Shown: positions 402 to 31,265, numbered from the stretch's first letter. The stretch: DNA of 64,000 bases from Candidatus Binatia bacterium (GCA_035624785.1 DASPQV010000049.1:5731-69730); one strand, 5' to 3'. The notes: generated from the letters alone by a model not told the origin. Program-made: numbers and translations.

Positions 402-1169
402 CTAGGGGTTCAAGCGGAGCAGCCCGATGATGCCGCCCTGCGGATCCCGGATCACGCTGAACCGGCCGCCGGAGAAGTCGGTGGGCGGCACCAGGGCAGG
501 TCCGCCGTGCTCCTCGGCCCTCGCGGTTCCGGCGTCGACGTCCGCCACCCCGAAGTAGATCAGCCAGTACGAGGGATACACGTCCTCGCCCGGGCGCAGC
601 GGAGTCGCCCCGGCCAGGCTGGCGCCCCCCAGGGTGAACTCGGTGTAGACCATCCCGCCCATCTCGGTGTCGCGGTGGCCCCAGCCGAAGACGCTGCCGT
701 AGAAGGCTCGGACCGCCTCGAGGTCGCGGGTGTGCAGCTCGATCCAGGTCACGCTTCCCGGAACGTCCTTGACCTGCACGCCCTGGTGCAGCGCCGGCTG
801 CCAGATTCCGATCGCCGCTCCGGCGGGATCCTCGAGGAATGCCATGGTGCCCCGGCCCATGACGTCGATCGGCTCCACCAGCACGGTGCCGCCCGCGGCC
901 TTCGCCTTCGACACCGTGGCGGCGGCGTCGGCGACGATGATGTAGGCGTTCCAGGCCGTCGGCTTGCGCTGGCTCTGCAGGGGTCCGACCCCACCCACCA
1001 TCTTCCCCTCGAGGTTGAAGAAGCCGTATCCGCCCGCCCGCGGATCGGGAACCAGATCCGCCGTCCACCCGAAGAGGTTCGCGTAGAAGGCGCGCGCCGC
1101 CTCCGGATCGGAGGTGGACAGGTCGAACCAGCCGGGGGTGTTCGTCTCGATGACCGGTGTCTCAGCCAT
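402..1169 (-). CDS. VOC (glyoxalase/bleomycin-resistance/dioxygenase) family protein with two tandem domains
   Basis: Two internally repeated modules: PGWFDLSTSDPEAARAFYANLFGW and VTWIELHTRDLEAVRAFYGSVFGW. I take the start at the internal ATG (MAETPV). The track ORF extends 11 codons further, to 1202. Confidence 0.75.
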   Translation of the reverse strand: MAETPVIETNTPGWFDLSTSDPEAARAFYANLFGWTADLVPDPRAGGYGFFNLEGKMVGGVGPLQSQRKPTAWNAYIIVADAAATVSKAKAAGGTVLVEPIDVMGRGTMAFLEDPAGAAIGIWQPALHQGVQVKDVPGSVTWIELHTRDLEAVRAFYGSVFGWGHRDTEMGGMVYTEFTLGGASLAGATPLRPGEDVYPSYWLIYFGVADVDAGTARAEEHGGPALVPPTDFSGGRFSVIRDPQGGIIGLLRLNP

Positions 1170-1390
1170 GGTCGAATGACCTCCCTTCCTCGCCGTGGTC
1201 ACCGTCGTCGTCCAGGGTAGCTCGGCGTACCTCAGGTCACGGGAGCAGCCCGCGGCCGGGCTGCCTGGACCGCAGCGCCGCAGCGGCCAGACTGGTCCGG
1301 GGCAGCGCCAGGTACGTTCGCGAGGAGTCCTGCGTCCCCTGGACCTGATCCGCGCTGGCGTGGTGCCGGTGGGCAGATCGTCATCCCCAT

Positions 1391-2581
1391 CTACCCCGTG
1401 GAGCGGCGGGCCGAGGCCTTGGAGGCAGCCCGCCGGGGCGGCGAGGTCGGGCTCCGGCTGCCCGTCTCCTGGTGATCCGCGGGGCGGCAGTCGCGCGGCC
1501 CCGCGGCTGCCGGGGCGGCTTCGGCCTCCGCGCCGGCGGCGGGCAGCTCGAACCAGAAGGTCGTCAGACGCTCGTCGGATTCAGCCCCCATCCTGCCGTC
1601 GTGCGCCTCGACCAGCTCGCGGGCGATCGCCAGGCCGATGCCGGCGCCTCCGCTCCCCCGGGTGCGGCTCGGATCTGCCCGGAAGAAGCGCTCGAAGACG
1701 TAGGGCAGGGCATCGGCGGGGACGCGCTCGCCGGTATTGCTGATGGCCACCCTCACCATCTCTCGGGGTGAAGCCGAGAGGCGAGCCGTGATCGCCGTTC
1801 CGGGGCGCGCGTAGCGGAGCGCGTTGTCGACGATGATCCCGACCACCTGGAGCAGTCGCAGCCGGTCTCCCATCACCAGGGGATCGGTCCCCACCCCATC
1901 CAGACGCCAGGTCAGCTGATGCCTGCCCATGGCCACCCTGAAGCTCTCCATCGCCTCGCCAACCAGGGAGCCGAGCGCCACGGGACCGCGGTCCATCCGA
2001 TCACGGGCGAGCTGGGCGTCGGCGAGAGCCCGGAGATCCTCGACCAGCGCGATCAGCCGGTCCAGCTCCTGGTGGGCGCGATCCAGGTTCTCCGGCGACG
2101 CCGGGATGACGCCGTCCCGCATCCCCTCCAGGAGGCCCATGAGGTTGTGGAGAGGCGTCCTCAGCTCGTGAGCGACGTCGTTGGTGACCTGGCGGCGGAG
2201 CTCCTCGAGGCGCTTCAGCGAGCCCGCCAGCTCGTTCACCGACTTGGCGACATCACCGATCTCGTCCTGCCGCGCCGTCCGGATCGGCTCGGGAGCGGCT
2301 CCCGACGCCAGGCTGCGGGTGGCGTCTCGCACGGCGTGGAGGGGTCGCAGGGCGAAGGTGACCACCAGGAAGTTGAGGATGACGGCGACCCCGGCGGCCG
2401 CGCCCAGGGCTGGGTACAGCTGGGTGGCCACCGCGGGCTGCATCACCACGTGCATGAGCACCAGGATGGTGGCGACCGTCGCGGCGATGACCAGCCCGTT
2501 GAGCGCCACCAGCTGCCCGCGCAGTCCGAGACGCCTCCAGAGGCGGCGGGTGGCGGCGACGGCGCGGCCGGCGACCCTCAT
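1391..2581 (-). CDS. Sensor histidine kinase (TM segments, HAMP-like linker, HisKA, HATPase)
   Basis: H-box VAHELRTPLHNL, N-box IVDNALRY, G-box GSGGAGIGLAIARELV. The ATG at 2579..2581 overlaps the response-regulator stop (ATGA). The 597-aa track ORF is an upstream in-frame extension and was rejected. Confidence 0.85.
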   Translation of the reverse strand: MRVAGRAVAATRRLWRRLGLRGQLVALNGLVIAATVATILVLMHVVMQPAVATQLYPALGAAAGVAVILNFLVVTFALRPLHAVRDATRSLASGAAPEPIRTARQDEIGDVAKSVNELAGSLKRLEELRRQVTNDVAHELRTPLHNLMGLLEGMRDGVIPASPENLDRAHQELDRLIALVEDLRALADAQLARDRMDRGPVALGSLVGEAMESFRVAMGRHQLTWRLDGVGTDPLVMGDRLRLLQVVGIIVDNALRYARPGTAITARLSASPREMVRVAISNTGERVPADALPYVFERFFRADPSRTRGSGGAGIGLAIARELVEAHDGRMGAESDERLTTFWFELPAAGAEAEAAPAAAGPRDCRPADHQETGSRSPTSPPRRAASKASARRSTG

Positions 2582-3300
2582 CGCGACCGGAGCTCCTCCA
2601 GCTTGTAGCCGAGACCTCGGACCGTGGTCACGGCCACCGAAGCTCCCCATGCCTGCAGGCACCGGCGGAGCCGGGCGACCTGGACGTCGACGGCGCGATC
2701 CCCGGCCCCCGGGTCGCCGTCGCCCCCGTGCAGGCGGGCCAGCAGCTGGCCGCGGGTGTAGACGCGGCCGGGGTGCTCGAGCAGCGCGTCGAGCAGCGAG
2801 AAGCCGTGCCGCGTCACCGGCACGGGGGCGCCGGCGACCCGGACGTCCCGGCTCTCCGGCATGAGCTCGAGGTTGCCCAGGCGCACCACCGGCGGTGGCA
2901 GGGGGCCGATCTCGGCCCGGCGCAGCAGAGCGGCGACACGGGCCACCAGCTCGCGGGGGCTGAAGGGCTTGACCAGGTAGTCGTCGGCGCCGATCTGAAG
3001 GCCGCGGATCCGATCCAGCTCGTCGGCGCGGGCGCTCAGGATCAGGATCGGCACCCTCGAGCCGCGCCGCCGGATCTCGGTGCAGATTTCGAAGCCGTCC
3101 CTCTGGGGGAGCATGACGTCGAGGACGACGCAGCGCGCCCTCACCTGGCGGAGGACGTCGAGAGCCTGGCCCCCGGAGCGGCACACCGCGGTGCGATGCC
3201 CCTCTCGCTCCAGGTAAGCGCGGACCACGTCGGCGGTGGTGGGATCGTCCTCCACCAGCAGGATCGGCGCGGCGGCCGGAGTCGCTGGGCTCTCTTCCAT
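2578..3300 (-). CDS. OmpR/PhoB-family response regulator
   Basis: Receiver motifs ILLVEDD, VVLDVMLP and YLVKPF, plus a winged-helix C-terminus (VDVQVARLRR..., RGLGYKL). Confidence 0.9.
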   Translation of the reverse strand: MEESPATPAAAPILLVEDDPTTADVVRAYLEREGHRTAVCRSGGQALDVLRQVRARCVVLDVMLPQRDGFEICTEIRRRGSRVPILILSARADELDRIRGLQIGADDYLVKPFSPRELVARVAALLRRAEIGPLPPPVVRLGNLELMPESRDVRVAGAPVPVTRHGFSLLDALLEHPGRVYTRGQLLARLHGGDGDPGAGDRAVDVQVARLRRCLQAWGASVAVTTVRGLGYKLEELRSR

Positions 3301-4675: not shown

Positions 4676-6304
4676 CTATGCCGCCCCTGCGCCCGGCCCC
4701 CGGTTGAGCGCGTGGTGGAGACCCCGCAGCTGCCGGTAGGCGGCCTGATACTGCCGGAACATGACGTCGTAGGTCGCCCTGTTCTCGGGCCTGGGGTCGA
4801 AGCTCCGGCTGACCCGCACCGTGGCGCGCAGGCTGGCGAAGCTGGGATGCATTCCGAGGGCGACCCCGGCGGCCAGGGCGGCGCCCACCGCACCGGCATC
4901 CTGCGGATCCTCGACGACCTCGAGCCGGCGCCCGGTGACGTCGGCGATGATCTGCATCCAGACCCCGCTTCGCGCCCCCCCGCCGACGACGCGCAGCACC
5001 GGTGAGGCCAGCCGGAAGTCCTGCGCCAGCCGCTCCAGGATCCACCGGAAATTGAAGGCGACGCCTTCGAGGATGGCCCGGACCAGGGTTCCGCGGCGGT
5101 GTTCGGGGCCGAGGTTGATGAAGGACGACCGCAGCAGCGGGTCGTCGACCGGCACGCGCTCGCCGTACATCCACGGGGTGAAGAGCAGGGAATCGGAGCC
5201 TGGGGCCACCGCCTCGGCCTCCGCGTCCATCTCGGCGAACGCATCGCCGAGCGGGCGCCCGCTCTCCCGCGCTCGAAACAGCTCGTTGGCAGCCCACTCC
5301 AGGCAGGCGCCCCCGGTCTCCATCTCGGCGATCAGCAGGTTGCGATCCGGGTCGCCGGACTGGATGACGGCCACGCCGTGGCGTCCGGTCGGATGCCCCG
5401 AGGTGATCGTCACCACCCATCCCGAGGTGCCCAGGTAGAGGTGGGCCTCGCCGTCGCCGATCGCTCCCGATCCGATCGCGGCGGCGGCGGCGTCGCCCAT
5501 TCCGGACACGATCGGGGTGCCCTCGGGGATGCCGAGGTCCGCGGCCGCGGCGGGGATGGCGGCGCCGGCCACGGCATTGGGGCGGAGCAGCGGCGGCAGC
5601 TTGCTCACGTCGATGCCGGCGTAGCGCATGATCCCGCTGAGCCAGGCCTTGCGCTTGAGGTCGAGGCCGAACGCCGACGCTCCGGTCCATTCCATGGCGC
5701 TGTGGCCGGTGCAGCGCAGCAGCAGGTAGCCGCCGACGTCGACGAAGCAGGCCATGCGATCCCAGGTGTCGGGCTCGTGCCGGCGCAGCCACTGGAGCTT
5801 GGGCATGCCGTCCTTGCCTGACAGCGTCGCCCCCGCCAGGCGTTCAAAGAGGCGCGCACCCCCGAACCGGCGCATTATGGCCACCGCCTCGGCACCGGCC
5901 CGGCCGTCCAGCCAGATGATGGGGCGGCGGAGCACGGTGCCGGCGCCGTCCACAGGCACCACACCGAGCATCTGGGTGCTGAAGGTGAGGCAGGCGGGAG
6001 CCGCCCCGTCCCGGCCGGCGAGCACGGCACGGGTGCCGGCGCAGACCGCCCGCCACCAGTCGGACGCGTCCTGCTCGGCCCACCCCACCTCGGGGTAGCA
6101 GGTCGGGTAGGGCTCGACGTGCTTGGCCACGACCCTCCCGCCGGCGTCGGCCAGCACCGTCTTGACGCCGCTGGTCCCGACGTCGTGGGCGACGATCAGG
6201 TCTCGGCTGGCGGGGTCGGCTGGCGTGTCCACTTCCGGTCGGGCAGCAGCATCCGACCTCGGTGGACCGCGCTCACAGAGGCGAAGGGCCCGGTTGAGGT
6301 GCAT
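4676..6304 (-). CDS. FGGY-family carbohydrate kinase (xylulokinase/glycerol-kinase-like)
   Basis: N-terminal DVGTSGVKT phosphate-1 motif, GDAAAAAIGSG, and C-terminal VVGGGARSGVWMQIIADVTG. The start is uncertain: ATG at 6304, or GTG at 6232 (VDTPADP...). Confidence 0.85.
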   Translation of the reverse strand: MHLNRALRLCERGPPRSDAAARPEVDTPADPASRDLIVAHDVGTSGVKTVLADAGGRVVAKHVEPYPTCYPEVGWAEQDASDWWRAVCAGTRAVLAGRDGAAPACLTFSTQMLGVVPVDGAGTVLRRPIIWLDGRAGAEAVAIMRRFGGARLFERLAGATLSGKDGMPKLQWLRRHEPDTWDRMACFVDVGGYLLLRCTGHSAMEWTGASAFGLDLKRKAWLSGIMRYAGIDVSKLPPLLRPNAVAGAAIPAAAADLGIPEGTPIVSGMGDAAAAAIGSGAIGDGEAHLYLGTSGWVVTITSGHPTGRHGVAVIQSGDPDRNLLIAEMETGGACLEWAANELFRARESGRPLGDAFAEMDAEAEAVAPGSDSLLFTPWMYGERVPVDDPLLRSSFINLGPEHRRGTLVRAILEGVAFNFRWILERLAQDFRLASPVLRVVGGGARSGVWMQIIADVTGRRLEVVEDPQDAGAVGAALAAGVALGMHPSFASLRATVRVSRSFDPRPENRATYDVMFRQYQAAYRQLRGLHHALNRGPGAGAA

Positions 6305-6411
6305 CGAACGACCCTTGGCCTGCTTGACGCCGCGGGACCAGACTGGCTGTGGTACGGGACGCCCTGGTCGTGCGGTTGCTCCGCTGGGCCTCGGGGCTGT
6401 CCCGGTCGGAC

Positions 6412-8745
6412 ATGGTCGTCTCGGAGGACGGAACTGTGAGCGTCGACGTCTCCGTCAGCCGGCAGGTGGTCGACACCTGCCGCGAGCTGCTCGCCCGCGG
6501 CTTCCTCAAGGTGAACGAGGGCAACGTGTCGGTGCGCGTCCCGGGGAGCCCGCGCTTCGCGATCACGGCGTCGGGGCGCGACTACGACACCCTCACCGAG
6601 GAGGACGTCTGCATCCTCGACCTCCAGCTGCACCGGATCGCGGGCACCCGCAAGCCGTCTATCGAGTCCGGTCTGCACGCCGCCGCCTACCGCCACCGGC
6701 CCGACGTCAATGTGGTGGTCCACACGCATCAGCCCTTCGCCAGCGCCCTGGCGATCATGCGCAAGCCGATCCCGGCGCTCTTCGACGAGCAGGTTCGCTT
6801 CCTGGGCCGCGGCGTGCCGATCGTCGGCTACGCGCCCTCTGGGACCGGCCTGCTGCGGCGTGGCGTCGAGGCCCGGATCCGGGCCGGGGGCAACGCCTTC
6901 ATCCTCGCCAACCACGGAGTCCTGGTGCTGGGCCAGGACGTCGACCACGCCGTCCACAACCTGGCGATCCTCGAGAAGGTCTCGCAGGCCTATCTGATGA
7001 GCCTGATGACCGCCGAGCGCACCCGGCGGATCCCGCTGCTGGTCAGGGAGATTGCGTTCGCCCAGCTGCGCAAGGAGGAGCGGGCGGCGGCGTCAGGCGA
7101 CGGTGCCGGGCCGCATGGTGCGGCGGGCGCGGCGGCGAACGTCCACGGGAACGGTGTGAAGCCGCTGGTCGCGCTGGCAGGGGAGAGGCCGGAGCCGGCG
7201 GGAGCGCTGGCGGGGGAGAGGCCGGAGCCGGCGGCGCGGCCGCTGGAGCCGCCGGCCGCCGTCCAGCCGCCGGCGAATGCCGGGATATCTGCCGGCGGGG
7301 CCGACTCCGCGATCAGCAGGTACCCGGATGTGGAGGCGGTCTACGCGAGATTGAACCGCCTTGTCGAGCAGCCGATGCGTCGGGTCCGCCGCTCCTACAT
7401 GGCTGAATGCCTTGGCTACTTCGACACCAAATGCCAGCGTTCCCGCCAGCTCACCGACCGAGCCAGGCTGAGCATCCCCGGGGGGGTGCAGCACAACCTT
7501 GCCTTCAACCACCCCTTCCCGATCGCCGTCGAGCGCGCCGAGGGAGCCTATCTCTGGGATGTCGACGGCAACCGGTACATCGACTTCCTGCAGGCGGGCG
7601 GGCCCACCATTCTGGGCAGCAACTGGGCGCCGCTGCAGGAACGCGTCATCGAGGTGCTGCACACCTCCGGGCCGGTGACCGGGCTCTTTCACGAGTACGA
7701 GCTGAAGCTGGCCGAGCTGGTCCGCCGACTGGTGCCGTCGGTCGAGATGCTGCGCATGTTCGGCTCCGGCAGCGAGGCGGTGATGGCCGCCCTCCGGGCC
7801 GCCCGCGCCTCCACCAAGAAGGCCTACGTCATCAAGATGGGCGGCGCCTACCACGGCTGGAGCGACCAGATGGTCTACGGGCTGCACGTCCCCGGCACCC
7901 GGCGGTTCGAGTCCAAGGGGATTCCCCGGCCGGCCACCAGCCGCACCTGCGAGGTGTACCCGAACTCGGTGGCGGCGCTGCGGCGCAAGCTGACCGAGAA
8001 CCGGCTGCGGGGCGGCACCGCTGCCGTGATCGTCGAGCCACTCGGTCCGGAGAGCGGAACCCGGCCTGTCGACTTCGACTTCAACGCCCGTGCCCGCGAG
8101 CTCTGCGACGAGTTCGGCGCCCTGCTCATCTTCGACGAGGTGGTCACCGGGTTCCGGGTGGGCTTGGGCGGCGCCCAGGCGTACTTCGGGGTGCGCCCGG
8201 ACCTCACCATCTTCGGGAAGTGCATCGCCGGGGGCTATCCGATGGCCGGTGCGGTGGGCGGCCGCTCCGACGTGATGTCGACGATGGCGGCCGGGATCGG
8301 GGGCACCGGCGAGCGCGCCTACGTGGGCGGCACCCTGTCGGCCAACCCGCTCTCCTGCGCCGCCGGGTACTTCGCGCTCCTGGAGATGGAGAGGACGGGT
8401 GCGCCGGTCATCGCCGGTCGGGCCGGCGACCGGCTGGCCCGCGGCCTGGAGCAGGTCATCGAGCGTCGCGGACTGCCCTACGTCGTCTACAACACCGGCT
8501 CCATCGTCCACCTGGAGACGTCCGGGGTGATGCTCCTCGACCTGCACCATCCGGTGCGGCTGCTCCGCGAGCTCAAGCCGCGCCGGACCATGATCGAGGA
8601 GATGGGCGCTGCCTACATGGCCAAGGGGATCGTCACGCTCGCCGGGTCCCGGATCTACACCTCGATGGCGGACACCGACGAGGTGATCGACGACGCGGTG
8701 CGGCGCTTCGACGAGGTCTTCGCCCACGTGGAGGGGGTGCGGTAG
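6412..8745 (+). CDS. Single-ORF fusion: N-terminal class II aldolase/adducin domain, low-complexity linker, then a class III (glutamate-1-semialdehyde aminomutase-like) PLP aminotransferase domain
   Basis: Aldolase part: NEGNVSVR, SIESGLHAAAY, VVVHTHQPFASALA, ILANHGVLVLG. Aminotransferase part: IPGGVQHN, GSGSEAVMAALRAAR, LIFDEVVTGFRVGLGGAQAYFG, FGKCIAGGYP (PLP lysine). No stop codon lies between the parts. Possible starts are ATG 6349, ATG 6412, or GTG 6436, which is preceded by GGAGGA. Confidence 0.7.
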   Translation: MVVSEDGTVSVDVSVSRQVVDTCRELLARGFLKVNEGNVSVRVPGSPRFAITASGRDYDTLTEEDVCILDLQLHRIAGTRKPSIESGLHAAAYRHRPDVNVVVHTHQPFASALAIMRKPIPALFDEQVRFLGRGVPIVGYAPSGTGLLRRGVEARIRAGGNAFILANHGVLVLGQDVDHAVHNLAILEKVSQAYLMSLMTAERTRRIPLLVREIAFAQLRKEERAAASGDGAGPHGAAGAAANVHGNGVKPLVALAGERPEPAGALAGERPEPAARPLEPPAAVQPPANAGISAGGADSAISRYPDVEAVYARLNRLVEQPMRRVRRSYMAECLGYFDTKCQRSRQLTDRARLSIPGGVQHNLAFNHPFPIAVERAEGAYLWDVDGNRYIDFLQAGGPTILGSNWAPLQERVIEVLHTSGPVTGLFHEYELKLAELVRRLVPSVEMLRMFGSGSEAVMAALRAARASTKKAYVIKMGGAYHGWSDQMVYGLHVPGTRRFESKGIPRPATSRTCEVYPNSVAALRRKLTENRLRGGTAAVIVEPLGPESGTRPVDFDFNARARELCDEFGALLIFDEVVTGFRVGLGGAQAYFGVRPDLTIFGKCIAGGYPMAGAVGGRSDVMSTMAAGIGGTGERAYVGGTLSANPLSCAAGYFALLEMERTGAPVIAGRAGDRLARGLEQVIERRGLPYVVYNTGSIVHLETSGVMLLDLHHPVRLLRELKPRRTMIEEMGAAYMAKGIVTLAGSRIYTSMADTDEVIDDAVRRFDEVFAHVEGVR
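7171..7236 (+). repeat. 33-bp tandem duplication (2 copies, 2-3 mismatches) inside the inter-domain linker
   Basis: gcgctggcaggggagaggccggagccggcggga is followed by gcgctggcgggggagaggccggagccggcggcg, encoding ALAGERPEPAG/ALAGERPEPAA. Confidence 0.85.
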
Positions 8746-8764
8746 GGGCTTCGCATCCGCCACT

Positions 8765-8790
8765 AGTTGTGGACGCAGCAGTCCACAACT
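8765..8790. terminator. Perfect 10-bp hairpin (agttgtggac gcagca gtccacaact) between convergent genes
   Basis: Read directly. It is noticeably AT-richer than the surrounding DNA and lies between the stop at 8745 (+) and the stop at 8796 (-). Confidence 0.55.
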
Positions 8791-8795
8791 CGCTG

Positions 8796-9950
8796 TCAGC
8801 GGGGGAAGTGCCGCGGCAGGCTGACCAGGACGGAGGTGCCCTGGCCGGGGGCGCTCTGGGCCGAGACGGTCCCGCCGTGCGCCTCGACGAGGTCGCGGAC
8901 GATGGCGAGACCGAGACCTGAGCCGGATGAGCCTGGCCCTTTGACGAAGCGGTCCCAGATCCGGGGGAGCAGCTCCTCGGGGATGCCCTCGCCGTCGTCG
9001 CGCACCGTGATCCGGACCTCCCGATCGGCGGCGGACACCTCGACGGTGATCGACCCGCCCCGCGCGGTGTGGGCGAGCGAGTTGCTGATCAGGTTGCCGA
9101 CCACGCGGCGCAACCGGGCCGGGTCGGCATCGATCACCACGGCATCGGGAGGAACGCGGCTCGACAGGCGCACCCCGGCGCCGCCGGCCTCGGCCCGGAA
9201 GGCGTCCAGGGTCTCGTTGACCAGGACGCCGACGTCGACGGGCTCGCGCTCGAGGCGCAGGCCGCCCGCGTCCACCAGGGTCAGGGTGCGGAGATCCTCG
9301 GCAAGCTCCTCGAGGGTGTGGGTGGCGGCGACGATCGGCGCGATGTGCTCCTCGTCCGCGGGATTGACGCCGTCGGCGATGGCCTCCGCCTGGCTGCGGA
9401 TGACGGTGAGGGGGGTGCGCAGCTCGTGGGCGATGTCGGCGAGGACGCTCTGGCGGCGGACCTCCTCCGCTTCCAATCGGGCGCTCATCTGGTTGAAGGC
9501 GCGGGCCAGGGAGCGCACCTGGCGGGGGCCGCGAACCGGGACGCGCGCCGAGTAGTCGCCGGCCTCGACGCGACGGGCGGCGTCGGCAAGGGCGCGCACC
9601 GGCGGGGCGCCGCGCCGGTAGCCGAGAACCACGATCACCAGGACCAGGGCCAGGACCGCGATGAAGAGGGCCAGCGCCGGGCGGCTGGCCGGGCCGCCGG
9701 CGAGGCCGAAAGCGGCCAGCACCAGCCACACCAGCAGGGCGGTGACGGCCAGCGGCACCAGCAGGGCGCAGCCGAAGAGGCAGCCGCAGGGCAGGGCGAA
9801 GGCCGCTCGCGGACCCCTCCACCCCCCCTCTCCGGCTCGTTCCCAGGGCGGCCGGCCGCGGGGCGGCCAGGGGGCGTCCTCGGGCCACCAGGGCGGACGG
9901 CGGATGCGCCCGTGGCCTCCCCCCGAGTTGCGGGACGGGCCGGTGCTCAC
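8796..9950 (-). CDS. Sensor histidine kinase (HAMP, HisKA, HATPase) with a Trp/Pro/Arg-rich N-terminal tail
   Basis: H-box IAHELRTPLTVI, NLISNSLAHT, GSGLGLAIVRDLVEAHGG. The GTG start at 9948..9950 overlaps the RR stop (GTGA). N-terminus: RRPPWWPEDAPWPPRGRPPWERAGEGGWRG. Confidence 0.85.
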   Translation of the reverse strand: MSTGPSRNSGGGHGRIRRPPWWPEDAPWPPRGRPPWERAGEGGWRGPRAAFALPCGCLFGCALLVPLAVTALLVWLVLAAFGLAGGPASRPALALFIAVLALVLVIVVLGYRRGAPPVRALADAARRVEAGDYSARVPVRGPRQVRSLARAFNQMSARLEAEEVRRQSVLADIAHELRTPLTVIRSQAEAIADGVNPADEEHIAPIVAATHTLEELAEDLRTLTLVDAGGLRLEREPVDVGVLVNETLDAFRAEAGGAGVRLSSRVPPDAVVIDADPARLRRVVGNLISNSLAHTARGGSITVEVSAADREVRITVRDDGEGIPEELLPRIWDRFVKGPGSSGSGLGLAIVRDLVEAHGGTVSAQSAPGQGTSVLVSLPRHFPR

Positions 9951-12745: not shown

Positions 12746-12965
12746 GGCCCGGCGGCCGCACCCGACCTGGGGTATCCTGGCGGTCCCGGTGCGCACCTCT
12801 CCCGGCTCTCCGCGCCTCCCTCCCGTGATCGCCGTCCTCGAGGGCATCCTCGCCCCGGGGCCCCGCGCCCGGCGGGCCGCCGAGACGGCGAGGCGCGCCG
12901 GCTGGGGGCGCTGAGGGGGTGTACCATCGCTTGCCGCTCGTATGAACAGCGCCTTGGAGTTTGAC

Positions 12966-13997
12966 ATGGAGAAACCCCCGATCCCCGTTGCGGTGGTTGG
13001 CCTCGGACCGATCGGACTGCGCATCTGCCGGCGGATCCTGGCGCGCCCTGAGCTGCTCCAACTCGTGGCCGTCACTGACAAGGCACCGGAGATCGGAGGC
13101 CGCAGGTTGGCGGATCTGCTCCCCGAGGCCTCCGCGTCCGAGCTCGTGATCAACCGCGAATATCCGGCGGCGCCGCGGGCTGGAGGAGTCCTGGTGCAGA
13201 CAACCACCTCGCACCTGACTGATTCCCATCAGCAGCTGCGAGACTTCGTGGAGCTGGGCTGGAACGTGGTATCCACGTGCGAGGAGCTCTCCGAGCCGCT
13301 GAGCGTCGATCCCAAGACCGCGGCCGACCTCGACGCACTGGCACGAGGCAAAGCGGTGACGATCCTGGGGACGGGGGTCAATCCCGGCTTCATGATGGAC
13401 ACCCTGCCGCTCGCCCTGACCACCCTGTGCGCCCAGGTCACCGCCGTACGTGTCCACCGGGTGGTCGACACCAACCTGCGACGCGAGCCTCTGCAGCGCA
13501 AGGCGGGCGTTGGGATGTCGGCGGACGAGTTCCGCGCCCTGGCTGCCGCCGGGCGGATCGGCCACGTGGGTCTGCTGCAGTCGCTCCACCTGATCGCGAG
13601 AGGGCTGGGATGGGCCCTCGACTCGACCGAGGTCCGGCTCGAGCCGGTGATCGCTGAGCGGGAGACGGCCAGCGGCATCGGTCCGGTCCCAGCGGGGAGC
13701 GTGATCGGCCAGGCCCAGGTGGCCACCGGCCACGTCGGGGCCAGGGAGGTCATTCGCTTCGAGCTGGAGATGGTGGCGGGCAGGCCCGGCACCGACGAGG
13801 TGTGGATCACCGGTGATCCGTCCTTCCACGAGGAGATCCATGGAGGGATCAACGGCGACATCGGCACCGAAGCGGTCGTCACCAACCTCATCGGGCCGGT
13901 GGCCGAGGCCAGACCCGGGCTGCTGACCATGGCTGATCTCGTGCCCCTGGGATGCCGAGCCGGTCTCGGGGGGATGCCCGCCACACACCAGGGATAA
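12966..13997 (+). CDS. NAD(P)-dependent amine dehydrogenase / 2,4-diaminopentanoate dehydrogenase-like protein (DapB-N-type Rossmann fold)
   Basis: VAVVGLGPIGLRI dinucleotide motif, LGTGVNPGFMMDTLPL motif. GGAG lies 6 nt before the ATG at 12966 (the track ORF starts at 12942). Confidence 0.6.
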   Translation: MEKPPIPVAVVGLGPIGLRICRRILARPELLQLVAVTDKAPEIGGRRLADLLPEASASELVINREYPAAPRAGGVLVQTTTSHLTDSHQQLRDFVELGWNVVSTCEELSEPLSVDPKTAADLDALARGKAVTILGTGVNPGFMMDTLPLALTTLCAQVTAVRVHRVVDTNLRREPLQRKAGVGMSADEFRALAAAGRIGHVGLLQSLHLIARGLGWALDSTEVRLEPVIAERETASGIGPVPAGSVIGQAQVATGHVGAREVIRFELEMVAGRPGTDEVWITGDPSFHEEIHGGINGDIGTEAVVTNLIGPVAEARPGLLTMADLVPLGCRAGLGGMPATHQG

Positions 13998-14024
13998 CCA
14001 GCGACTCCGGGAGGGCTTGCAACC

Positions 14025-15380
14025 GTGGACGCCCAGACCTCCACCGTCGAGGATGAGTTCGTCGGGACTCACATGGCGTCGGATGAGCTTTTCAGACGCC
14101 AGGCCAAGGTGGTCCCGGGCGGCGTGACCCACATGGCCCGAGCCTTCGAGCCGTTCCCTCTCTTCATCAGCGCCCTGTCAGGCGCCCACAAGCAGGATGT
14201 CGACGGACACGATTACGTCGACTACTGGATGGCTCATGGGGCCAACCTGCTGGGTCATCGACATCCCGCCGTGCACGAGGCCATCCAGCGTCAACTCGAG
14301 CGAGGCCTGCATGCCTGTGGAGAGAACGAGACGGCGGTGGCGCTGGCTGAAGCTGTCTGCCGGATGGTGCCGTCGGCGAGCCGGGTGCGCTTCTGCGCCT
14401 CGGGGGGCGAGGCGACCCAACTGGCCATCAGGCTTGCCCGCGCCTACTCCGGACACGAGCGCATCATCAAGTTCGAGCACCACTTCCATGGCTGGCACGA
14501 CGCGGTGGCCTTCGGCTTCCCGCCCAGCGATACGCCGTGGTCCTCGGGACTCCCCGACGCCCTCCAATCCCTGACCGTGGTGCTGCCGTTCAACGACGCC
14601 GATGCGCTCTCCAGGTACCTCTCCGAGGATGCCCAGGTGGCCGGAGTGCTGCTGGAGCCGGGCGGTGCCCACAGCGACACGGTCCCGGTGGATCCAGCCT
14701 TCCTGCGCACGGTTCGCGAGCTCTGCACCGAGCACGGGGTGGTCCTGGTATTCGATGAGGTGGTCACCGGTTTCCGGTACGCCAGGGGAGGGGCGCAGGA
14801 GTTCTTCGGGGTGACCCCGGACGTCACCGCCCTGGGCAAGATCATGGGTGGCGGTCTGCCCATCGGGGCGGTGGCGGGGGGGGCGGACATCATGGAGGTG
14901 CTGGCCCCGCGGCGCGGAGACGAGGTGCGTCCCTACGTCCCCCAATACGGAACCTGGAACGGGATGCCGATTGCCGCCGCCGCAGGGTTGGCGGCCCTGA
15001 GAGTGGTCGAGACCAGCGACGTCATCCAGGCGACGGTGCGCCGGACCGACCAGCTGAGAGCTGCCCTGAATAGGGTGCTGCGCCAGCGTGGCGTGGAAGG
15101 CACCGCCTATGGCCGGTCGTCGATCTGGAAGACGTACCTCGGCGAACCCCTGAAGCTCCTCGACGGTGACTACACCCGGGCCAGGGAGGACGGCATCCGT
15201 CTGGCCAGCTCATCGGGCCCGCGCGCCCGCGTTCTGCGGCAGTCGATGATCCTCGACGGCGTCGACGTCATGTACGGTGGCGGCTTCATGTCGGCCGCGC
15301 ACGATGACGCGGACCTGGAGCGCACCGTCACCGCGTTCGACCGGGCCCTGACGCGGCTGCAGGAGGCGGGGCTGGTGTAG
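14025..15380 (+). CDS. Class III PLP aminotransferase, glutamate-1-semialdehyde 2,1-aminomutase-like
   Basis: VVPGGVTH, ASGGEATQLAIRLAR, LVFDEVVTGFRYARGGAQEFFG, ALGKIMGGGLP (PLP lysine). GTG start preceded by GGGAGGG. Confidence 0.85.
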   Translation: MDAQTSTVEDEFVGTHMASDELFRRQAKVVPGGVTHMARAFEPFPLFISALSGAHKQDVDGHDYVDYWMAHGANLLGHRHPAVHEAIQRQLERGLHACGENETAVALAEAVCRMVPSASRVRFCASGGEATQLAIRLARAYSGHERIIKFEHHFHGWHDAVAFGFPPSDTPWSSGLPDALQSLTVVLPFNDADALSRYLSEDAQVAGVLLEPGGAHSDTVPVDPAFLRTVRELCTEHGVVLVFDEVVTGFRYARGGAQEFFGVTPDVTALGKIMGGGLPIGAVAGGADIMEVLAPRRGDEVRPYVPQYGTWNGMPIAAAAGLAALRVVETSDVIQATVRRTDQLRAALNRVLRQRGVEGTAYGRSSIWKTYLGEPLKLLDGDYTRAREDGIRLASSSGPRARVLRQSMILDGVDVMYGGGFMSAAHDDADLERTVTAFDRALTRLQEAGLV

Positions 15381-15381
15381 C

Positions 15382-16770
15382 GTGGCCCTGCACCATCACG
15401 AGCCGGGTGAGGCGGAGCTGGAGGTCAACCCGCTGTACGCGTCGGCCGCGGCCCGCGGCCGTGTCCCCAAGCTGCGCATCCCCGACCAGCCCATGGATCC
15501 GGAGACCGCCTACCAGATCGTCCACGACGAGCTGATGCTGGACGGGAACGCGCGGCTCAACCTGGCCACCTTCGTCACCACCTGGATGGAGCCGCAGGCC
15601 AACCGGCTCATCGTCGAGGCGCTCGACAAGAACGTCATCGACAAGGATGAGTATCCGCAGACCGCGGAGATCGAGCGGCGCTGCGTCCACATCCTCGCCT
15701 CACTCTGGCATGCGCCGCCCCGGCGGACCGCGGTCGGGTGCTCCACAACCGGTTCCAGTGAGGCGGCGATGCTGGCCGGCCTGGCGCTCAAGTGGCGCTG
15801 GCGCGAGGCCCGCCGCTCCGCCGGCGGTTCCGCCGATCGGCCCAACCTGGTGATGGGCATCAACGTCCAGGTGTGCTGGGAGAAGTTCTGCCGGTACTGG
15901 GACGTGGAGCCGCGCTTCGTGCCCATGGAGGGAGATCGGCGCCATCTCACCGGCGAGGAGGCGGTGAAGCTCTGCGACCAGGACACCATCGGGGTGGTGG
16001 CGGTGCTCGGCTCCACCCAGGACGGCAGCTACGAGCCGGTGGCCGAGATCTGCGCGGCCCTGGATGGGCTCCGAGATTGCGGCGGCCCCGACGTGCCGGT
16101 GCACGTCGATGCCGCCTCGGGGGGCTTCGTGGCCCCCTTCGTGCAGCCCCAGCTGGTCTGGGACTTCCGGCTCGACCGGGTGGCGTCCATCAACAGCTCC
16201 GGCCACAAGTACGGCCTGGTCTACCCCGGGGTGGGCTGGGTGATCTGGCGCGACCGCGAGGCCCTGCCCGAGCCGCTGATCTTCCGGGTCAACTACCTGG
16301 GCGGGAGCATGCCCACCTTTGCCCTCAACTTCTCCCGACCGGGCGCCCAGGTCATCGCCCAGTACTACAACCTCATCCGGCTCGGCTTCGAGGGTTACCG
16401 GCTGGTCCAGCAGACATCCCTGGACACCGCCCGCCACATCTCCGACGCCGTCAGCCGCATCGGTCCATTCCGGCTGCTCACCGACGGCAGCGAGCTGCCG
16501 GTGTTCGCCTTCGCGCTCCGCCCCGAGGTCGATCGCTACACCGTCTTCGACGTGTCCGACGGGCTGCGCAAGCGCGGCTGGCAGGTCCCCGCCTACCACC
16601 TGCCCCGCAACCTTCAGGCGACCGCGGTGCTCCGGGTGGTGGTGCGCAACGGGATGTCACGCGACCTCGCCGACCTGCTGATCGCCGACCTGAGGAGGGA
16701 GGTCGCCCAGCTCGACAAGCTCTCCGCTCGTCTGCCCCAGCACCCCGACCGGGCCCGCTTCCACCATTGA
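15382..16770 (+). CDS. Glutamate decarboxylase (group II PLP decarboxylase)
   Basis: NLATFVTTWMEP, DKDEYPQTAEIE, SINSSGHKYGLVYPGVGWVIWRD (PLP lysine motif). The GTG start lies 1 nt after the preceding stop. Confidence 0.9.
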   Translation: MALHHHEPGEAELEVNPLYASAAARGRVPKLRIPDQPMDPETAYQIVHDELMLDGNARLNLATFVTTWMEPQANRLIVEALDKNVIDKDEYPQTAEIERRCVHILASLWHAPPRRTAVGCSTTGSSEAAMLAGLALKWRWREARRSAGGSADRPNLVMGINVQVCWEKFCRYWDVEPRFVPMEGDRRHLTGEEAVKLCDQDTIGVVAVLGSTQDGSYEPVAEICAALDGLRDCGGPDVPVHVDAASGGFVAPFVQPQLVWDFRLDRVASINSSGHKYGLVYPGVGWVIWRDREALPEPLIFRVNYLGGSMPTFALNFSRPGAQVIAQYYNLIRLGFEGYRLVQQTSLDTARHISDAVSRIGPFRLLTDGSELPVFAFALRPEVDRYTVFDVSDGLRKRGWQVPAYHLPRNLQATAVLRVVVRNGMSRDLADLLIADLRREVAQLDKLSARLPQHPDRARFHH

Positions 16771-18757: not shown

Positions 18758-21700
18758 TCAGGGGACGGTCACGCCCTGGAGGACCGCCGGGCCCACGGTC
18801 GGGTCCAGCTCCTGCTGAACGTTGACGCCGGCCGGCGGGATGGTGTCGAGGACGTAGGGCACGCTGCCCGGGTTGAAGCCGCAGATCGCCGGCACCGGCG
18901 GTGTGGTGGCCTCCGCCGTCGAGCACACCCCGAAGTTGAAGGGTTGCGGGGTCGCCGCGAAGGTGCGAGCGTCGTCGAATCCGAAGCCGTCCTGCCCGGT
19001 CAGGGTGAGGGTGAAGGTCCAACCTGCCCAGGCCGAGGCGGCGGTCGACGCCGGGGCTCCCAGGGTCGATGCGGGCACGGTGATGGTGACGATCCCGGGC
19101 GTGTCACCTCCGGAGGGGGTCAGCTGGGCGGCCGAGACCGCTGGCGTGCCGATGCCGCCGCCGCAGTTGGGGTAGCTCCAGGTGAGGCCCGAGGTCGTCG
19201 ACGACGGGGTCACCCAGCAGTCGCCGCCGAAGCCGTCCACCTCGATGACCTGGTTCCAGGCGTCCGCCGCCGCGATGGAGTAGTTGAAGGGACTGGCCGC
19301 GGCCGTCGATTGGACTTCGCCGGTGGGGACCTGACCGCTGGGAGCGTGGATGTAGAGGTCGAACAGCTGGGCGCCGTCGAGGCTGCCGAAGGTCGGCACC
19401 AGGTTCTCGATGCCCACCCGGAAGCTGACGGTGGTGCCGGAGTCGATCACCGTCAACCCGGTCAGGCGGAAGGAGTCGGGCGAGAAGTTGGAGCTCGTCG
19501 GGTACGCGTAGACCCCGGTGGGCTGCGTGTACGGCGAGTAACCGGGCCCGTTGCCGCCGCCCGGGGCGGCGGGCACGTTGAGGATCACCGTGCCGGGGAT
19601 GAACAGGTTGTTGACTGCGAAGATGGCCTCGTCGGTGGCGCTGCCCGCGGTCGCCGCCACCTCGATGGAGTTGCTCCCCGGCTCCAGGGCGACCGAGGTC
19701 GAGAAGGCGCCGCCGCCGTCCGCGCTCACCGTGGTGATCGTGGTGGTCGGCGTCGACGCCCCGGCCGCCGTCCCGGTGATCGCGATGTCGACGGTCGCGC
19801 CCGCCGCCGTGCTGCCGCTGACCACCGTCGAGGCGGAGTTGACCGTCACCGACGGGCGGGTGAGGTTGATCGGGACGTCCCGCCCGTTGACGGCCAGCGG
19901 TGACGACACGGCGAGCGCCGCGGTCGCGGGTGGGGCGGGCAGGTAGCGCTCGGCGACGATGCTCGGCTGGTCGAGCAGGGTGCCGCTCTGGATGTCGCGG
20001 AGCAGCCGGAGGAGCTGCGCCTGGGCCCAGGTCAGCGGTGCCGCTGAGCCGTCGGGCTTGCCGTCGATCAAGCCGATGGACGCCGTGGTCGGGTCGGAGC
20101 CGTAGGCCGAGGCGGCCAGGTCCGGGAAGTTCCAGACCTGCTCGGGCATGAGACCGACGCCGCTTGCCGAGTTGAGCATGAAGTCGAGATCCGACTGCAG
20201 CGCCGCCGGGTTGCCGGCCAGCAGCTGGTACTCCGCGTTCTCCCCGGAGAGCACCGGCCAGGGGTGCCCGGTGCCGGTGTCGGTGGTCGCCCAGGGCTCG
20301 CCGGTGAGCGGGCAGTTGGCGTTGGCCGCGACCTCGACCGCGCCCGTGTCGCAGTCGCCATAGCCGTCGCCGTTGTAGCGCATGATCCCGGTCCCGGATG
20401 GCGTCGAGGAGTCGATGGCGCTCGCGGCCACCGCCAGGGAGTTGCTGACGGTGGGATCGGACGCCGGCAGCTCGCCGAGCCGGGTCAGCTCGAGGAACCC
20501 CTGGTCGATCACGCTGCGCTGGTCCACCGGGCTGGTGTTGCCGTTGTTGAGGGTGTAGGTCACGCCGGCCTGGTCAGGGTTTCCGGTCTTGTCCAGGCGC
20601 ATGAAGTAGGAGCTGGACGAGAGCGGCCCGTCAGTGGTGATGCCGGTGGTCAGGATCAGCTGGCGGAAGTCGTCGGCGGTGGCCAGGAAGAGGCGCTGCG
20701 ATGCGGTGTCGCCCTGCACCCCGGCGATCGCGGCAGCGGCCACCAGGCCGGCAACCTCATCGGCCATGGTGGAGGGCGAGAAACCGGTCTGCTCCTCCCA
20801 GCGCTCCACGCCGTCCACCGGGCCGTTGGCGACCAGGAAGTCGGCGGCGGGCCTGATGTGATCCTGGTAGAGGGAGGCGCTGCCGGCCATTCCCGCCTGC
20901 CACGCGGCGAGGATCGGGTCCGCGGTCTCGTCGAGCTGGAGCCCGCCCGTGTCGGGTGCCGCCTCGCCGTTGAGCAGCCCGTTGCGCGGGAAGCTGCCGT
21001 CCGGCAGCTGCATGTGGTCGAACCAGTATTCGACCATCTGGCGGGCGGTGCCGATGTCACCGTCGGCCAGGAAGCCGGTGAACGTCTCGTAGGCGTCGCG
21101 GGGGAACACCTCGCGATACGACCCGAAGTAGGGAGCCAGGTCGTTGACCGGGGTCCCGGCCGAGACCGCCTGGCCCCAGGGGCTGCTCAGGGACGCGGCG
21201 GTGGCACCGACGAAGCTCTTGTCCTCGCTCGCCTTGATGACGTTGGCGGAGAGCCAGTAGGCGGCCTGGTCGGCGGGGCTGAGGGCGGTGCCGCCATGTC
21301 CGGGCGCGCCGCCCGGCGAGCAGAGCTGGGAGTCGTAGTCGAGCCACTGCCCCTGGTACTGGAGGAAGGTGGCGGCGATAGGGGCCGCCGACGCGTCGAG
21401 CGCGGACTCGAGCGCGCTGGCCTCGGTGCCGCCGAAGCCAAGGGCCACCGTCTGGCTGCTCACCGCGCTGGGACGGGGCGGGGTCGACAGCCCGGCCGCC
21501 CCGGCCGCCGCGGCCGCGATCGCCACTGGGCTGAGGCTGGTGACGCCGGTGGCGGTCGCTCCGGGAGCTATGCGGCGGGGCGAGCAGACGGATGCGCTGT
21601 CGAAGCTGCCGCCGCCGTAGGCGCCCAGGTCGCCGCCGCTCGCCCCGCCTGACGAGGCGGCCGGCGCGCCGCTGCCCAGGCTCAGCTCGACGGTCTGGAC

Positions 21701-28696: not shown

Positions 28697-28706
28697 GGAG
28701 ACATCG

Positions 28707-28916
28707 ATGCCAGAGATAACGCTGCTGGCCCCCGACATCAGCTGCGAGCACTGCAAGCGGACCATCGAGACGGAGATGGGCACCCTGGCCGGTGTCGCCG
28801 CGGTGGACGTCGACCCGCCCGGCCGGACGGTGAGGGTCACCTACGATGAGGCGCGGGTCACGGAGAGTGCCATCCGAGCCCGCCTCGACCAGATCGGCTA
28901 CCCGGCGGCACGCTGA
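28707..28916 (+). CDS. copZ: Heavy-metal-associated (CopZ-like) metallochaperone
   Basis: A 69-aa ferredoxin-like HMA protein with the variant metal motif ISCEHC (CxxC). It sits immediately after copA. Confidence 0.75.
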   Translation: MPEITLLAPDISCEHCKRTIETEMGTLAGVAAVDVDPPGRTVRVTYDEARVTESAIRARLDQIGYPAAR

Positions 28917-28925
28917 GGCGATGGC

Positions 28926-29204
28926 ATGAGTGCACCCGGCTACTCCCAGGACAAGGCCTCGCTCCAGGCTCGGCTGGCCCGCATCGAGGGCCAGGTGCGC
29001 GGTCTTCGGCGGATGCTCGACGAGGAGCGCTACTGCATCGACGTGCTCACCCAGGTGACCGCGGTCAAGGCCGCCCTGGACCGGGTCGCTCTGGCCCTGC
29101 TCCACGACCATGTCAGCCACTGCGTGGTGGACGCCGTGCGTGAGGGCGGCGGCGACGAGAAGGTGAGCGAGCTGACCGCCGCCATCGGCCGCTACGTGAG
29201 CTGA
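28926..29204 (+). CDS. csoR: CsoR/RcnR-family metal-sensing repressor
   Basis: Family signature LARIEGQVRGLRRM, ERYCIDVLTQ (Cys), and HDHVSHC (His/Cys ligands), i.e. the C-H-C Cu(I) pattern. Confidence 0.85.
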   Translation: MSAPGYSQDKASLQARLARIEGQVRGLRRMLDEERYCIDVLTQVTAVKAALDRVALALLHDHVSHCVVDAVREGGGDEKVSELTAAIGRYVS

Positions 29205-31112: not shown

Positions 31113-31265
31113 CTCACTCTCCCGCTGCAATGGCTCGGAGTGTGGCCAGGCTTTCAGCCTGCGCCAAGGGTCCTTCGGCCCAAGCCTGGCAATGCCCTCG
31201 CCTCTGGTCCGGCTGGAGCGGTGGGACCCATGCTGCGGTCGACCGGGCGGTGCTCGCCCGGCGGC

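Follow-up and report, generated by a model that had tools for sequence, protein, structure and literature searches.

Pathways for fuculose, rhamnulose and ribulose 1-phosphates combine an FGGY kinase with a zinc enzyme of the class II aldolase fold (FucK/RhaB with FucA/RhaD, and the haloarchaeal ribulose-1-phosphate (Ru1P) aldolase). Methionine salvage (MtnK, MtnA, MtnB, MtnW, MtnE) also employs a kinase and a class II aldolase fold, sometimes with a RuBisCO-like protein, and an aminotransferase that acts on 1-phospho-2-keto compounds. In a further group of routes, an amino-alcohol is phosphorylated and its amine is then removed by a pyridoxal 5'-phosphate (PLP) enzyme of the class III fold, with an aldehyde dehydrogenase (ALDH) and a small-molecule regulator encoded nearby. 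Ethanolamine-phosphate phospho-lyase is a PLP enzyme of this fold, which takes the amine off a phosphorylated amino-alcohol. Phosphorylation of an amino-alcohol followed by the action of a PLP enzyme has been described for the mycobacterial aminopropanol kinase/phospho-lyase microcompartment (PMC4207490). Here, we analyzed a 64,000-nucleotide stretch of DNA from Candidatus Binatia bacterium (GCA_035624785.1 DASPQV010000049.1:5731-69730; hereafter the window, whose numbering is used throughout), in which a single open reading frame (ORF) joins a class II aldolase-fold domain to an aminotransferase resembling glutamate-1-semialdehyde aminomutase (GSAM, or HemL), and an FGGY kinase gene lies divergent from it. 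The fusion is best explained as two enzymes that would cooperate within a widespread, uncharacterised cassette comprising an FGGY kinase, a zinc- and phosphate-binding aldolase-fold enzyme and a GSAM-like transaminase.

This cassette resembles each of the described systems in part, and none of them shows its full combination of enzymes. It shares with the ketose 1-phosphate pathways the FGGY kinase and the zinc class II aldolase fold, together with the His-x-His...His site, an equivalent of FucA Glu73 and the phosphate-binding residues. However, it contains no isomerase, and a PLP transaminase is obligatorily coupled to it (fused, in this case). Relative to methionine salvage, the kinase and aminotransferase belong to different families; the isomerase, phosphatase and dioxygenase are absent, and a RuBisCO-like protein is present in two loci only. 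The amino-alcohol routes use APH-type kinases rather than FGGY kinases, have no aldolase, and rely on a PLP lyase of another subgroup. With HemL and its transaminase relatives (D-phenylglycine aminotransferase, beta-transaminases, GntE), the cassette aminotransferase has a common fold at ~40% identity, as well as the PLP lysine, the Asp of FDEV, and the SG(S/T)EA and GTLS.NP motifs. The features of the locus are as follows (amino acid (aa) numbering from GTG 6349).

6349..8745, plus strand: aldolase-aminotransferase fusion gene, one ORF without a stop, of 798 aa from GTG 6349 or 777 aa from ATG 6412
6463..6996, plus strand: class II aldolase/adducin-fold domain (aa 39-216; PF00596)
7063..7311, plus strand: Ala/Gly/Pro-rich linker (aa 239-321), predicted to be disordered
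7312..7509, plus strand: family-specific N-terminal extension of the aminotransferase (aa 322-387; ISRYPDV...QPMRRVRR...)
7510..8520, plus strand: class III GSAM-like PLP aminotransferase core (aa 388-724), with PLP lysine K624 at 8218-8220
4676..6304, minus strand: FGGY-family carbohydrate kinase (FGGY_N 4.6e-43, 148 bits; FGGY_C 1e-30, 107.5 bits)

A preliminary description of this DNA had proposed that an intact class II aldolase and a class III PLP aminotransferase share one ORF, and Pfam analysis bore this out. The Aldolase_II domain (PF00596) is complete at aa 39-216 (E 3e-47, 161.3 bits against a cut-off of 22.2, profile positions 2-183 of 183), and Aminotran_3 (PF00202) covers aa 388-724 (E 2e-51, 175 bits against a cut-off of 30.5). 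The HTH zinc motif that it had pointed out was found as H125-T-H127 of the aldolase half. The likely true start of the fusion gene is ATG 6412, from which the gap to the divergent kinase is 107 nt (44 nt from GTG 6349), close to the 110 nt or so given before. The stop-free linker, earlier put at about 90 aa, measures about 84 aa and contains 23 Ala, 13 Gly and 11 Pro residues; a direct 11-aa repeat within it (LAGERPEPAGA / LAGERPEPAAR, 7174-7239) suggests that a local duplication may have lengthened it. In an AlphaFold2 model of the fusion (mean pLDDT, the predicted local distance difference test score, 57.8), the aldolase domain was modeled with confidence (~90), the only half for which this was so, while the linker had a pLDDT of ~30 and zero secondary structure; the aminotransferase half was poorly modeled from a shallow alignment and was left unused. 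The polypeptide of ~84 kDa would be expected to assemble as a tetramer of aldolase domains bearing dimers of the aminotransferase. An internal start at MRRVRRSYM, which had also been suggested, is unlikely, since it would remove the conserved N-terminal extension that stand-alone aminotransferases keep, and stand-alone orthologues start ~25 aa upstream of it, at a conserved YPDV motif.

The window comes from a peat metagenome, and a linker of high GC content and low complexity is error-prone; the GC content is 71-75% around the fusion and kinase. Both favor the view that the fusion arose from an assembly or frameshift error, or that its second half is the haem biosynthesis enzyme HemL joined by chance. 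The read support across 7050..7400 argues otherwise: one Logan unitig from a peat-metagenome DNA run spans 6200-7880 at a depth of ~12 with no stop, 0 mismatches and 0 gaps. This run may be the source data of the window itself, so that the unitig represents an independent assembler but not certainly independent data. Short metatranscriptome contigs also map to 6874-7044 and 8650-8800. Among the best 120 proteins taken from a collection of 5.8 billion, all 120 contained both Pfam domains (62-99% identity, 712-813 aa), with linkers that vary and have no consensus in this stretch, and a 99%-identical protein is present on another contig. The third-codon-position GC content remains at 0.82-0.88 across the linker in an unchanged frame. 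Misassembly or a frameshift in the linker was ruled out by this continuous codon-position signal, the fused homologues and the unitig. A chance joining to HemL is opposed by the scores of the second half against the HemL models (270-295 bits, with cut-offs of 398-527) and by its lack of an equivalent of GSAM Arg32. We consider artefact or chance joining extremely improbable, and the fusion is confirmed as genuine by the agreement of assembly and homologues.

We next describe the distribution of the trio, which was determined by a scan of one genome per species. The scan found relatives in at least 553 species, belonging to Actinomycetota, Chloroflexota, Proteobacteria and other groups. The best 80 loci were read and their ORFs clustered, and six contexts from metagenome contigs and two annotated plasmids were added (individual loci carry L numbers below). 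Counted over 83 loci, an FGGY kinase occurs in 63, a major facilitator superfamily (MFS) transporter in 54 and a TetR regulator in 49. The aminotransferase is 57-79% identical between phyla. The window itself carries the fused gene with an FGGY kinase within a few kb, the arrangement by which the cassette was recognized. The cassette is predicted to be a kinase/aldolase module with an obligatory transaminase, to which TetR, an FLVCR-like MFS transporter and/or a class 3 ALDH are often added.

The preliminary description had treated the aldolase and aminotransferase as a fusion, but in most phyla the orthologues are two adjacent genes. In Chloroflexota (Anaerolineae, including the cultured Longilinea arvoryzae and Ornatilinea apprima), the split halves encode an aldolase of ~228 aa and an aminotransferase of 480-490 aa, and the order is a divergent TetR gene followed by aldolase, aminotransferase, MFS and FGGY kinase. 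A Burkholderia ambifaria plasmid carries TetR, then FGGY kinase, aldolase, aminotransferase, a second aldolase paralogue without His-x-His, a short-chain dehydrogenase/reductase (SDR) and ALDH. On a Butyrivibrio plasmid and on gut or rumen metagenome contigs, TetR, FGGY kinase and aldolase (300-340 aa) are followed, sometimes after a GtrA-like membrane protein, by the aminotransferase and ALDH; in these Firmicute-type operons, the ALDH gene begins directly after the aminotransferase gene. Close relatives of the gut and rumen aminotransferase are named as Lachnospiraceae, Treponema and Coriobacteriales, and one 90% cluster holds 685 sequences. The halves are fused in Actinomycetota (Thermoleophilia and relatives) and in one metagenome-assembled genome labeled 'delta proteobacterium'. 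Because the same halves are adjacent cassette genes in Chloroflexota, Burkholderia and gut and rumen Firmicutes, the Actinomycetota gene represents a Rosetta-stone fusion. The existing annotation of all copies is generic or wrong ('glutamate-1-semialdehyde aminomutase', 'ribulose-5-phosphate 4-epimerase').

The second aldolase-fold paralogue follows the aminotransferase directly in proteobacterial cassettes (L083:11126-11773, L026:6230-6880 and L027:12234-12785), where it has lost His-x-His and kept a motif, FDEQ, of the cassette aldolase; it may be a non-catalytic partner subunit.

The kinase link drawn in the preliminary description proved general, as the FGGY gene recurs across phyla; however, the kinase of the window turned out to be of a minority type. 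The slot is occupied by at least three FGGY types that are mutually only ~32-37% identical, and because different, non-orthologous FGGY kinases have been recruited repeatedly, the combination appears to be under selection. The window kinase, which we call type B, is 67% identical to the kinase beside the fused orthologue in L086 and 32-37% identical to the common cassette kinase; the same type occurs in the cassette at L061, L082, L036 and L086. The kinases of the window, L036, L061, L082, L086 and L087 together represent the three types, two of which stand in tandem at L036. In curated models, the window kinase was closest to xylulokinases (XylB TIGR01312, 306.7 bits against 380.25; PRK15027, 210 against 912), and identity as XylB was rejected on these sub-cut-off scores.

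Several loci depart from this organization. An aldolase-less variant in a few Chloroflexota loci (L060, L068, L076 and L078) consists of the cassette aminotransferase (73-79% identical) and kinase, preceded by an ApbA-like reductase or followed by an SDR. The SDR of L076 and L078 is itself followed by a serine palmitoyltransferase (SPT)-like alpha-oxoamine synthase (NF047600, 520 bits against a cut-off of 640). The complete order at L078:7048-13658 is ApbA-like reductase, FGGY kinase, aminotransferase, SDR and SPT-like synthase, of which L076, L068 and L060 hold parts. A possible role of this variant is the synthesis or remodeling of long-chain lipids of the amino-diol or diol type. Eight Chloroflexota cassettes contain an inserted D-2-hydroxyacid dehydrogenase gene and a gene resembling beta-hydroxyaspartate/serine dehydratases, and in one fused lineage a glycerol-1-phosphate-dehydrogenase-like gene and a HAD phosphatase gene follow the fusion. 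Three phosphatase families (HAD, histidine phosphatase and IMPase) recur near the cassette, and none is conserved in it. At L086:7877-9190 and L067:3-584, the direct neighbor of the cassette kinase or aminotransferase is a RuBisCO-like protein, which in L067 stands where the aldolase gene would be. This protein is of form IV and comes closest to the MtnW enolase (377 bits, with a cut-off of 409). We tried the L086 protein as a true carboxylase acting on a pentulose bisphosphate, which its closeness to MtnW does not support; read by eye, its sequence lacks the equivalents of Lys177 and Arg295. The aldolase-fold enzyme and the partners in these loci (the ApbA-like reductase, SDR and SPT-like synthase, the RuBisCO-like protein, and the glycerol-1-phosphate-dehydrogenase-like protein with the HAD phosphatase) are all members of families that act on 1-phospho-2-keto(3-hydroxy) compounds or on the corresponding 2-amino compounds.

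The aldolase half aligns over its full length with E. coli FucA. Its metal ligands H125, H127 and H189 correspond to FucA H92, H94 and H155, E106 to Glu73 (the base and acidic fourth ligand), and N59 and S104 to the phosphate-site residues N29 and S71; each of the six is at least 97% conserved in 76 fused and stand-alone family sequences. Two other positions differ from FucA: the catalytic Tyr113 is replaced by Asp146, within the FDEQ motif, and Phe131 of the aldehyde pocket by Ser164, and both replacements are invariant in the family. All curated models scored below their cut-offs, those for FucA and the Ru1P aldolase far below. The best in NCBIfam was PRK06557, an 'L-ribulose-5-phosphate 4-epimerase' subfamily (128 bits against 251), followed by the haloarchaeal Ru1P aldolase model (127 against 300) and the FucA models PRK06833 (102 against 264) and TIGR01086 (91 against 400); OtnC also matched below its cut-off. 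Identity as FucA, AraD, MtnB or OtnC was rejected, since no curated cut-off was reached. Thus, of the FucA/AraD/MtnB-type aldolase assigned previously, the class II fold with its full metal and phosphate site stands, while the enzyme identity does not.

These results bear on the possibility that the zinc half is not an aldolase but converts the kinase product as a dehydratase like MtnB, an epimerase like AraD or a decarboxylase like OtnC, with the transaminase using the resulting diketo or 2-oxo product in a manner resembling methionine salvage. The invariant Asp in place of Tyr113 is consistent with this, as AraD and MtnB/APIP presumably use an acidic residue in roughly the same region; the 'epimerase' label of the top model, the matches to MtnB and OtnC, and the MtnW-like protein beside the kinase or aminotransferase in L086 and L067 point the same way. 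However, matches to the MtnB and AraD models are confined to the N-terminal ~110 residues, whereas the FucA and Ru1P-aldolase models match the full length, Glu73 and the entire zinc and phosphate site are kept, and just 2 of ~90 loci have the RuBisCO-like protein. We regard a non-aldolase function as unlikely.

For the aminotransferase half, the best PDB matches were GSAMs at ~40% identity, and the PLP lysine K624, in FGKCIAGG, aligned with that of GSAM and was invariant in the family. An alignment of 83 fused and split sequences revealed the invariant motifs IPGGVQHNLAFNHPFP, YHGWSD, VEPLGPESGTRP, FDEVVTGFR, FGKC..GGYPMAG, GGTLSANP and LAGSR.YTS, among which YHGWSD, VEPLGPESGTRP and LAGSR.YTS are, by sequence comparison, peculiar to this family. 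The ~65-aa N-terminal extension is also found in stand-alone orthologues (480-490 aa, compared with ~430 for GSAM). In contrast to HemL, the segment GGVNSPVRAF, which contains the carboxylate-binding Arg32, is replaced by an invariant and Arg-free GGVQHNLAF. Around GSAM Glu406, which repels alpha-carboxylates, the family has AGSRIYTS in place of PSQFEGLF, with an invariant Arg one position off; the alignment here is of low confidence, and a PDB search with the C-terminal part was uninformative. Scores against the HemL models (TIGR00713, 270 bits against 527; PRK00062, 295 against 398) and the missing Arg32 equivalent led us to reject identity as HemL, and the genomic context is not that of haem biosynthesis. 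The earlier label of GSA-aminomutase-like holds for similarity only: the family scores below cut-off, is without Arg32 and carries an invariant Arg that aligns, with low confidence, close to Glu406. We infer that this half is a transaminase rather than an aminomutase.

Considering these features together, we tentatively propose that the cassette serves the catabolism of 2-amino-polyols or sphingoid-type bases. The substrate would be an amino-alcohol with a 2-amino-1,3,4-triol head, i.e., an aminopolyol or a phytosphingosine-type long-chain base. The kinase would phosphorylate its C1 hydroxyl, the transaminase domain would convert the C2 amine to a ketone, giving a compound of the ketose-1-phosphate type, and the fused aldolase domain would cleave it between C3 and C4 to dihydroxyacetone phosphate (DHAP) and an aldehyde, which the ALDH, where the cassette has one, would oxidize to an acid. 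Under this scheme, the fused domains would catalyze consecutive steps and every conserved component would be used in order. It would also account for the absence of a sugar isomerase from the conserved cassette of the loci compared, because the amine-to-ketone step would yield the ketose directly.

The accessory proteins fit an amino-alcohol. The cassette MFS transporter matched FLVCR1 and FLVCR2 in the PDB at E 1e-39 to 4e-37 (next-best match, 4e-7), structures that are labeled as transporters of choline and ethanolamine, which are amino-alcohols. The Firmicute-type ALDH is of class 3 (PDB matches: ALDH3A1, 367 bits; the fatty aldehyde dehydrogenase ALDH3A2, 348 bits; and benzaldehyde dehydrogenase), and that of the Burkholderia cassette is of the same type. 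Class 3 ALDHs prefer hydrophobic aldehydes, and the operon ALDH thus suggests a hydrophobic aldehyde product. The sphingoid form of the proposal draws support from the aldolase-less variant, since SPT-like enzymes, one of which adjoins it, make 2-amino-1,3-diol bases. A long alkyl chain, as in phytosphingosine, fits the ALDH class, TetR, the SPT-linked variant and the ecology, i.e., plant and fungal sphingolipids in peat, rumen and gut; phytosphingosine-type bases are abundant in the sphingolipids of plants and fungi. The FLVCR-like transporter and the FGGY kinase are easier to reconcile with a small polar aminopolyol.

Several observations weigh against aminopolyol or sphingoid-base catabolism. 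The window contains no ALDH gene, no TetR gene near the fusion and no adjacent MFS gene. The 'epimerase', Ru1P-aldolase and FucA models score alike and below cut-off, and the catalytic Tyr113 is an invariant Asp, so that aldol cleavage is a putative activity. FLVCR substrates are small and polar and would suit a small amino-alcohol more readily than a long-chain base, and to our knowledge no FGGY kinase acts on lipids. The SPT link is seen in only two or three related loci, and the ALDH near Actinomycetota loci is of another type, resembling succinic-semialdehyde dehydrogenase, and lies further away.

The most specific version of the proposal is the degradation of phytosphingosine-type bases, in which C1 phosphorylation by the FGGY kinase and C2 transamination would give a ketone resembling 5-alkyl-5-deoxy-ribulose-1-phosphate, to be cleaved to DHAP and a C15 fatty aldehyde that a class 3, fatty-aldehyde-dehydrogenase-like ALDH would oxidize; the SPT/SDR variant would then build or remodel long-chain amino-diol lipids in Chloroflexota. 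We consider this version unlikely. A Pseudomonas operon, sphBCD, removes sphingosine, sphinganine and phytosphingosine to a product that has not been identified, and includes a predicted PLP enzyme (PMC11398299); its proteins (periplasmic oxidase, cytochrome c, PLP aldolase) are unrelated to those of the cassette. Chloramphenicol or phenylserinol-type substrates, prompted by nitroreductase neighbors, were rejected, as they would give a 2-keto-1,3-diol without the beta-hydroxyl required for retro-aldol cleavage.

The same enzymes could also operate in the aminating direction, which is close to the channeling idea of the preliminary description. A ketose would be phosphorylated at C1 and cleaved to DHAP and an aldehyde, and the transaminase would aminate the aldehyde or DHAP (glycolaldehyde to ethanolamine, lactaldehyde to 1-amino-2-propanol, or DHAP to serinol phosphate), with the amino-alcohol exported by the MFS transporter or used by the cell. 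DHAP transaminases that form serinol phosphate exist in other aminotransferase classes (PMC3222319). The haloarchaeal Ru1P aldolase model, whose product is named only in the family description, and the FucA models are equal-best matches of the aldolase half, the MFS transporter is homologous to choline/ethanolamine transporters, and the glycerol-1-phosphate-dehydrogenase-like gene after one fused gene encodes a potential DHAP user and is accompanied by the HAD phosphatase gene. However, neither an isomerase nor any source of a ketose is encoded in the cassette, and TetR control together with a transporter gives the operon a catabolic appearance. The tightly coupled ALDH of class 3 would draw on the same aldehyde as the transaminase, and excretion of ethanolamine would cost nitrogen with no evident benefit. 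We therefore view amination as a credible but doubtful alternative.

A third arrangement would assimilate ethanolamine: imported by the MFS transporter, it would be converted by the transaminase to glycolaldehyde, which the fused aldolase would condense with DHAP to a pentulose 1-phosphate, and a phosphatase and the FGGY pentulokinase would deliver the product to the pentose phosphate pathway. The channeling of a reactive aldehyde would explain the fusion, and the FLVCR-like transporter, the resemblance of the aldolase to Ru1P and FucA aldolases and of the kinase to xylulokinase, and the phosphatases recurring near the cassette are all consistent with it. Yet none of these phosphatases is a conserved part of the cassette, the class 3 ALDH is left without a role, and no precedent was found in the literature searched, which makes ethanolamine assimilation improbable.

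Outside the fusion and kinase, the following genes of the window were compared with the cassette loci.

29844..31160, minus strand: FLVCR-like MFS transporter orthologue (Pfam MFS_1; tblastn 52-58% identity to the cassette MFS of five loci)
8796..9950, minus strand: histidine kinase (HAMP/HisKA/HATPase_c), convergent with the fusion gene
9947..~10650, minus strand: OmpR-type response regulator (Response_reg/Trans_reg_C)

The MFS orthologue lies ~21 kb from the fusion, and since its neighbors there are unrelated genes, the cassette is dispersed in this genome. Two OmpR-type two-component systems (1391..3300 and 8796..~10650) flank the kinase and fusion pair, and homologous histidine kinase/response regulator pairs adjoin the cassette in about 9 related loci, with or without TetR; it is possible that the pair at 8796..~10650 regulates the fusion and kinase, although its membership in the cassette is uncertain. 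We rejected as a pathway member the beta-propeller 'lactonase-like' gene after the kinase (3444..~4560), which seems to encode a secreted protein and is without homologues in the related loci.

At 12942..16770 (plus strand), genes for a 2,4-diaminopentanoate-dehydrogenase-like protein (DAP_DH_C), a second class III aminotransferase of the GSAM-like kind (451 aa, sharing 38% identity with the aminotransferase half of the fusion) and a group II PLP decarboxylase, separated by gaps of 27 and 1 nt, look like a separate small amine/diamine pathway. Adjoining the MFS gene is a heavy-metal P-type ATPase gene (26369..29204, with a CsoR-like repressor); such ATPases also occur near the Butyrivibrio operon (L084:1-2906, with a metal-sensing repressor) and a gut-metagenome operon (L087:14564-16883, with an HMA protein), which is probably a coincidence. 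Glyoxalase/VOC-family genes are found near the fused gene in the window (402..1202, minus strand) and immediately upstream of it at L085:8859-9745. The gene at 18758..23059 (minus strand) encodes a GH15 protein of 1433 aa that resembles glucodextranase and carries an SLH-like binding module at its C terminus.

The domain architecture is already present in public databases under generic annotation, and the sequence family is not new. A full-text literature search on the enzyme trio and on candidate substrates and routes returned no description of the cassette, in agreement with the earlier statement that this is not a described pathway. What is new is the recognition of the conserved cassette and of the Rosetta-stone relationship, and a pathway that is seemingly undescribed. 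The fusion provides direct genomic evidence that an aldolase-fold enzyme and a transaminase act together, and it flags a systematic mis-annotation of HemL-like genes. The spread of the trio over several phyla marks a common metabolic pathway, one that is very common in gut and rumen bacteria, and offers a way into a missing part of metabolism, that of amino-alcohols, aminopolyols or possibly sphingoid bases, in soil, peat, digester and gut habitats.

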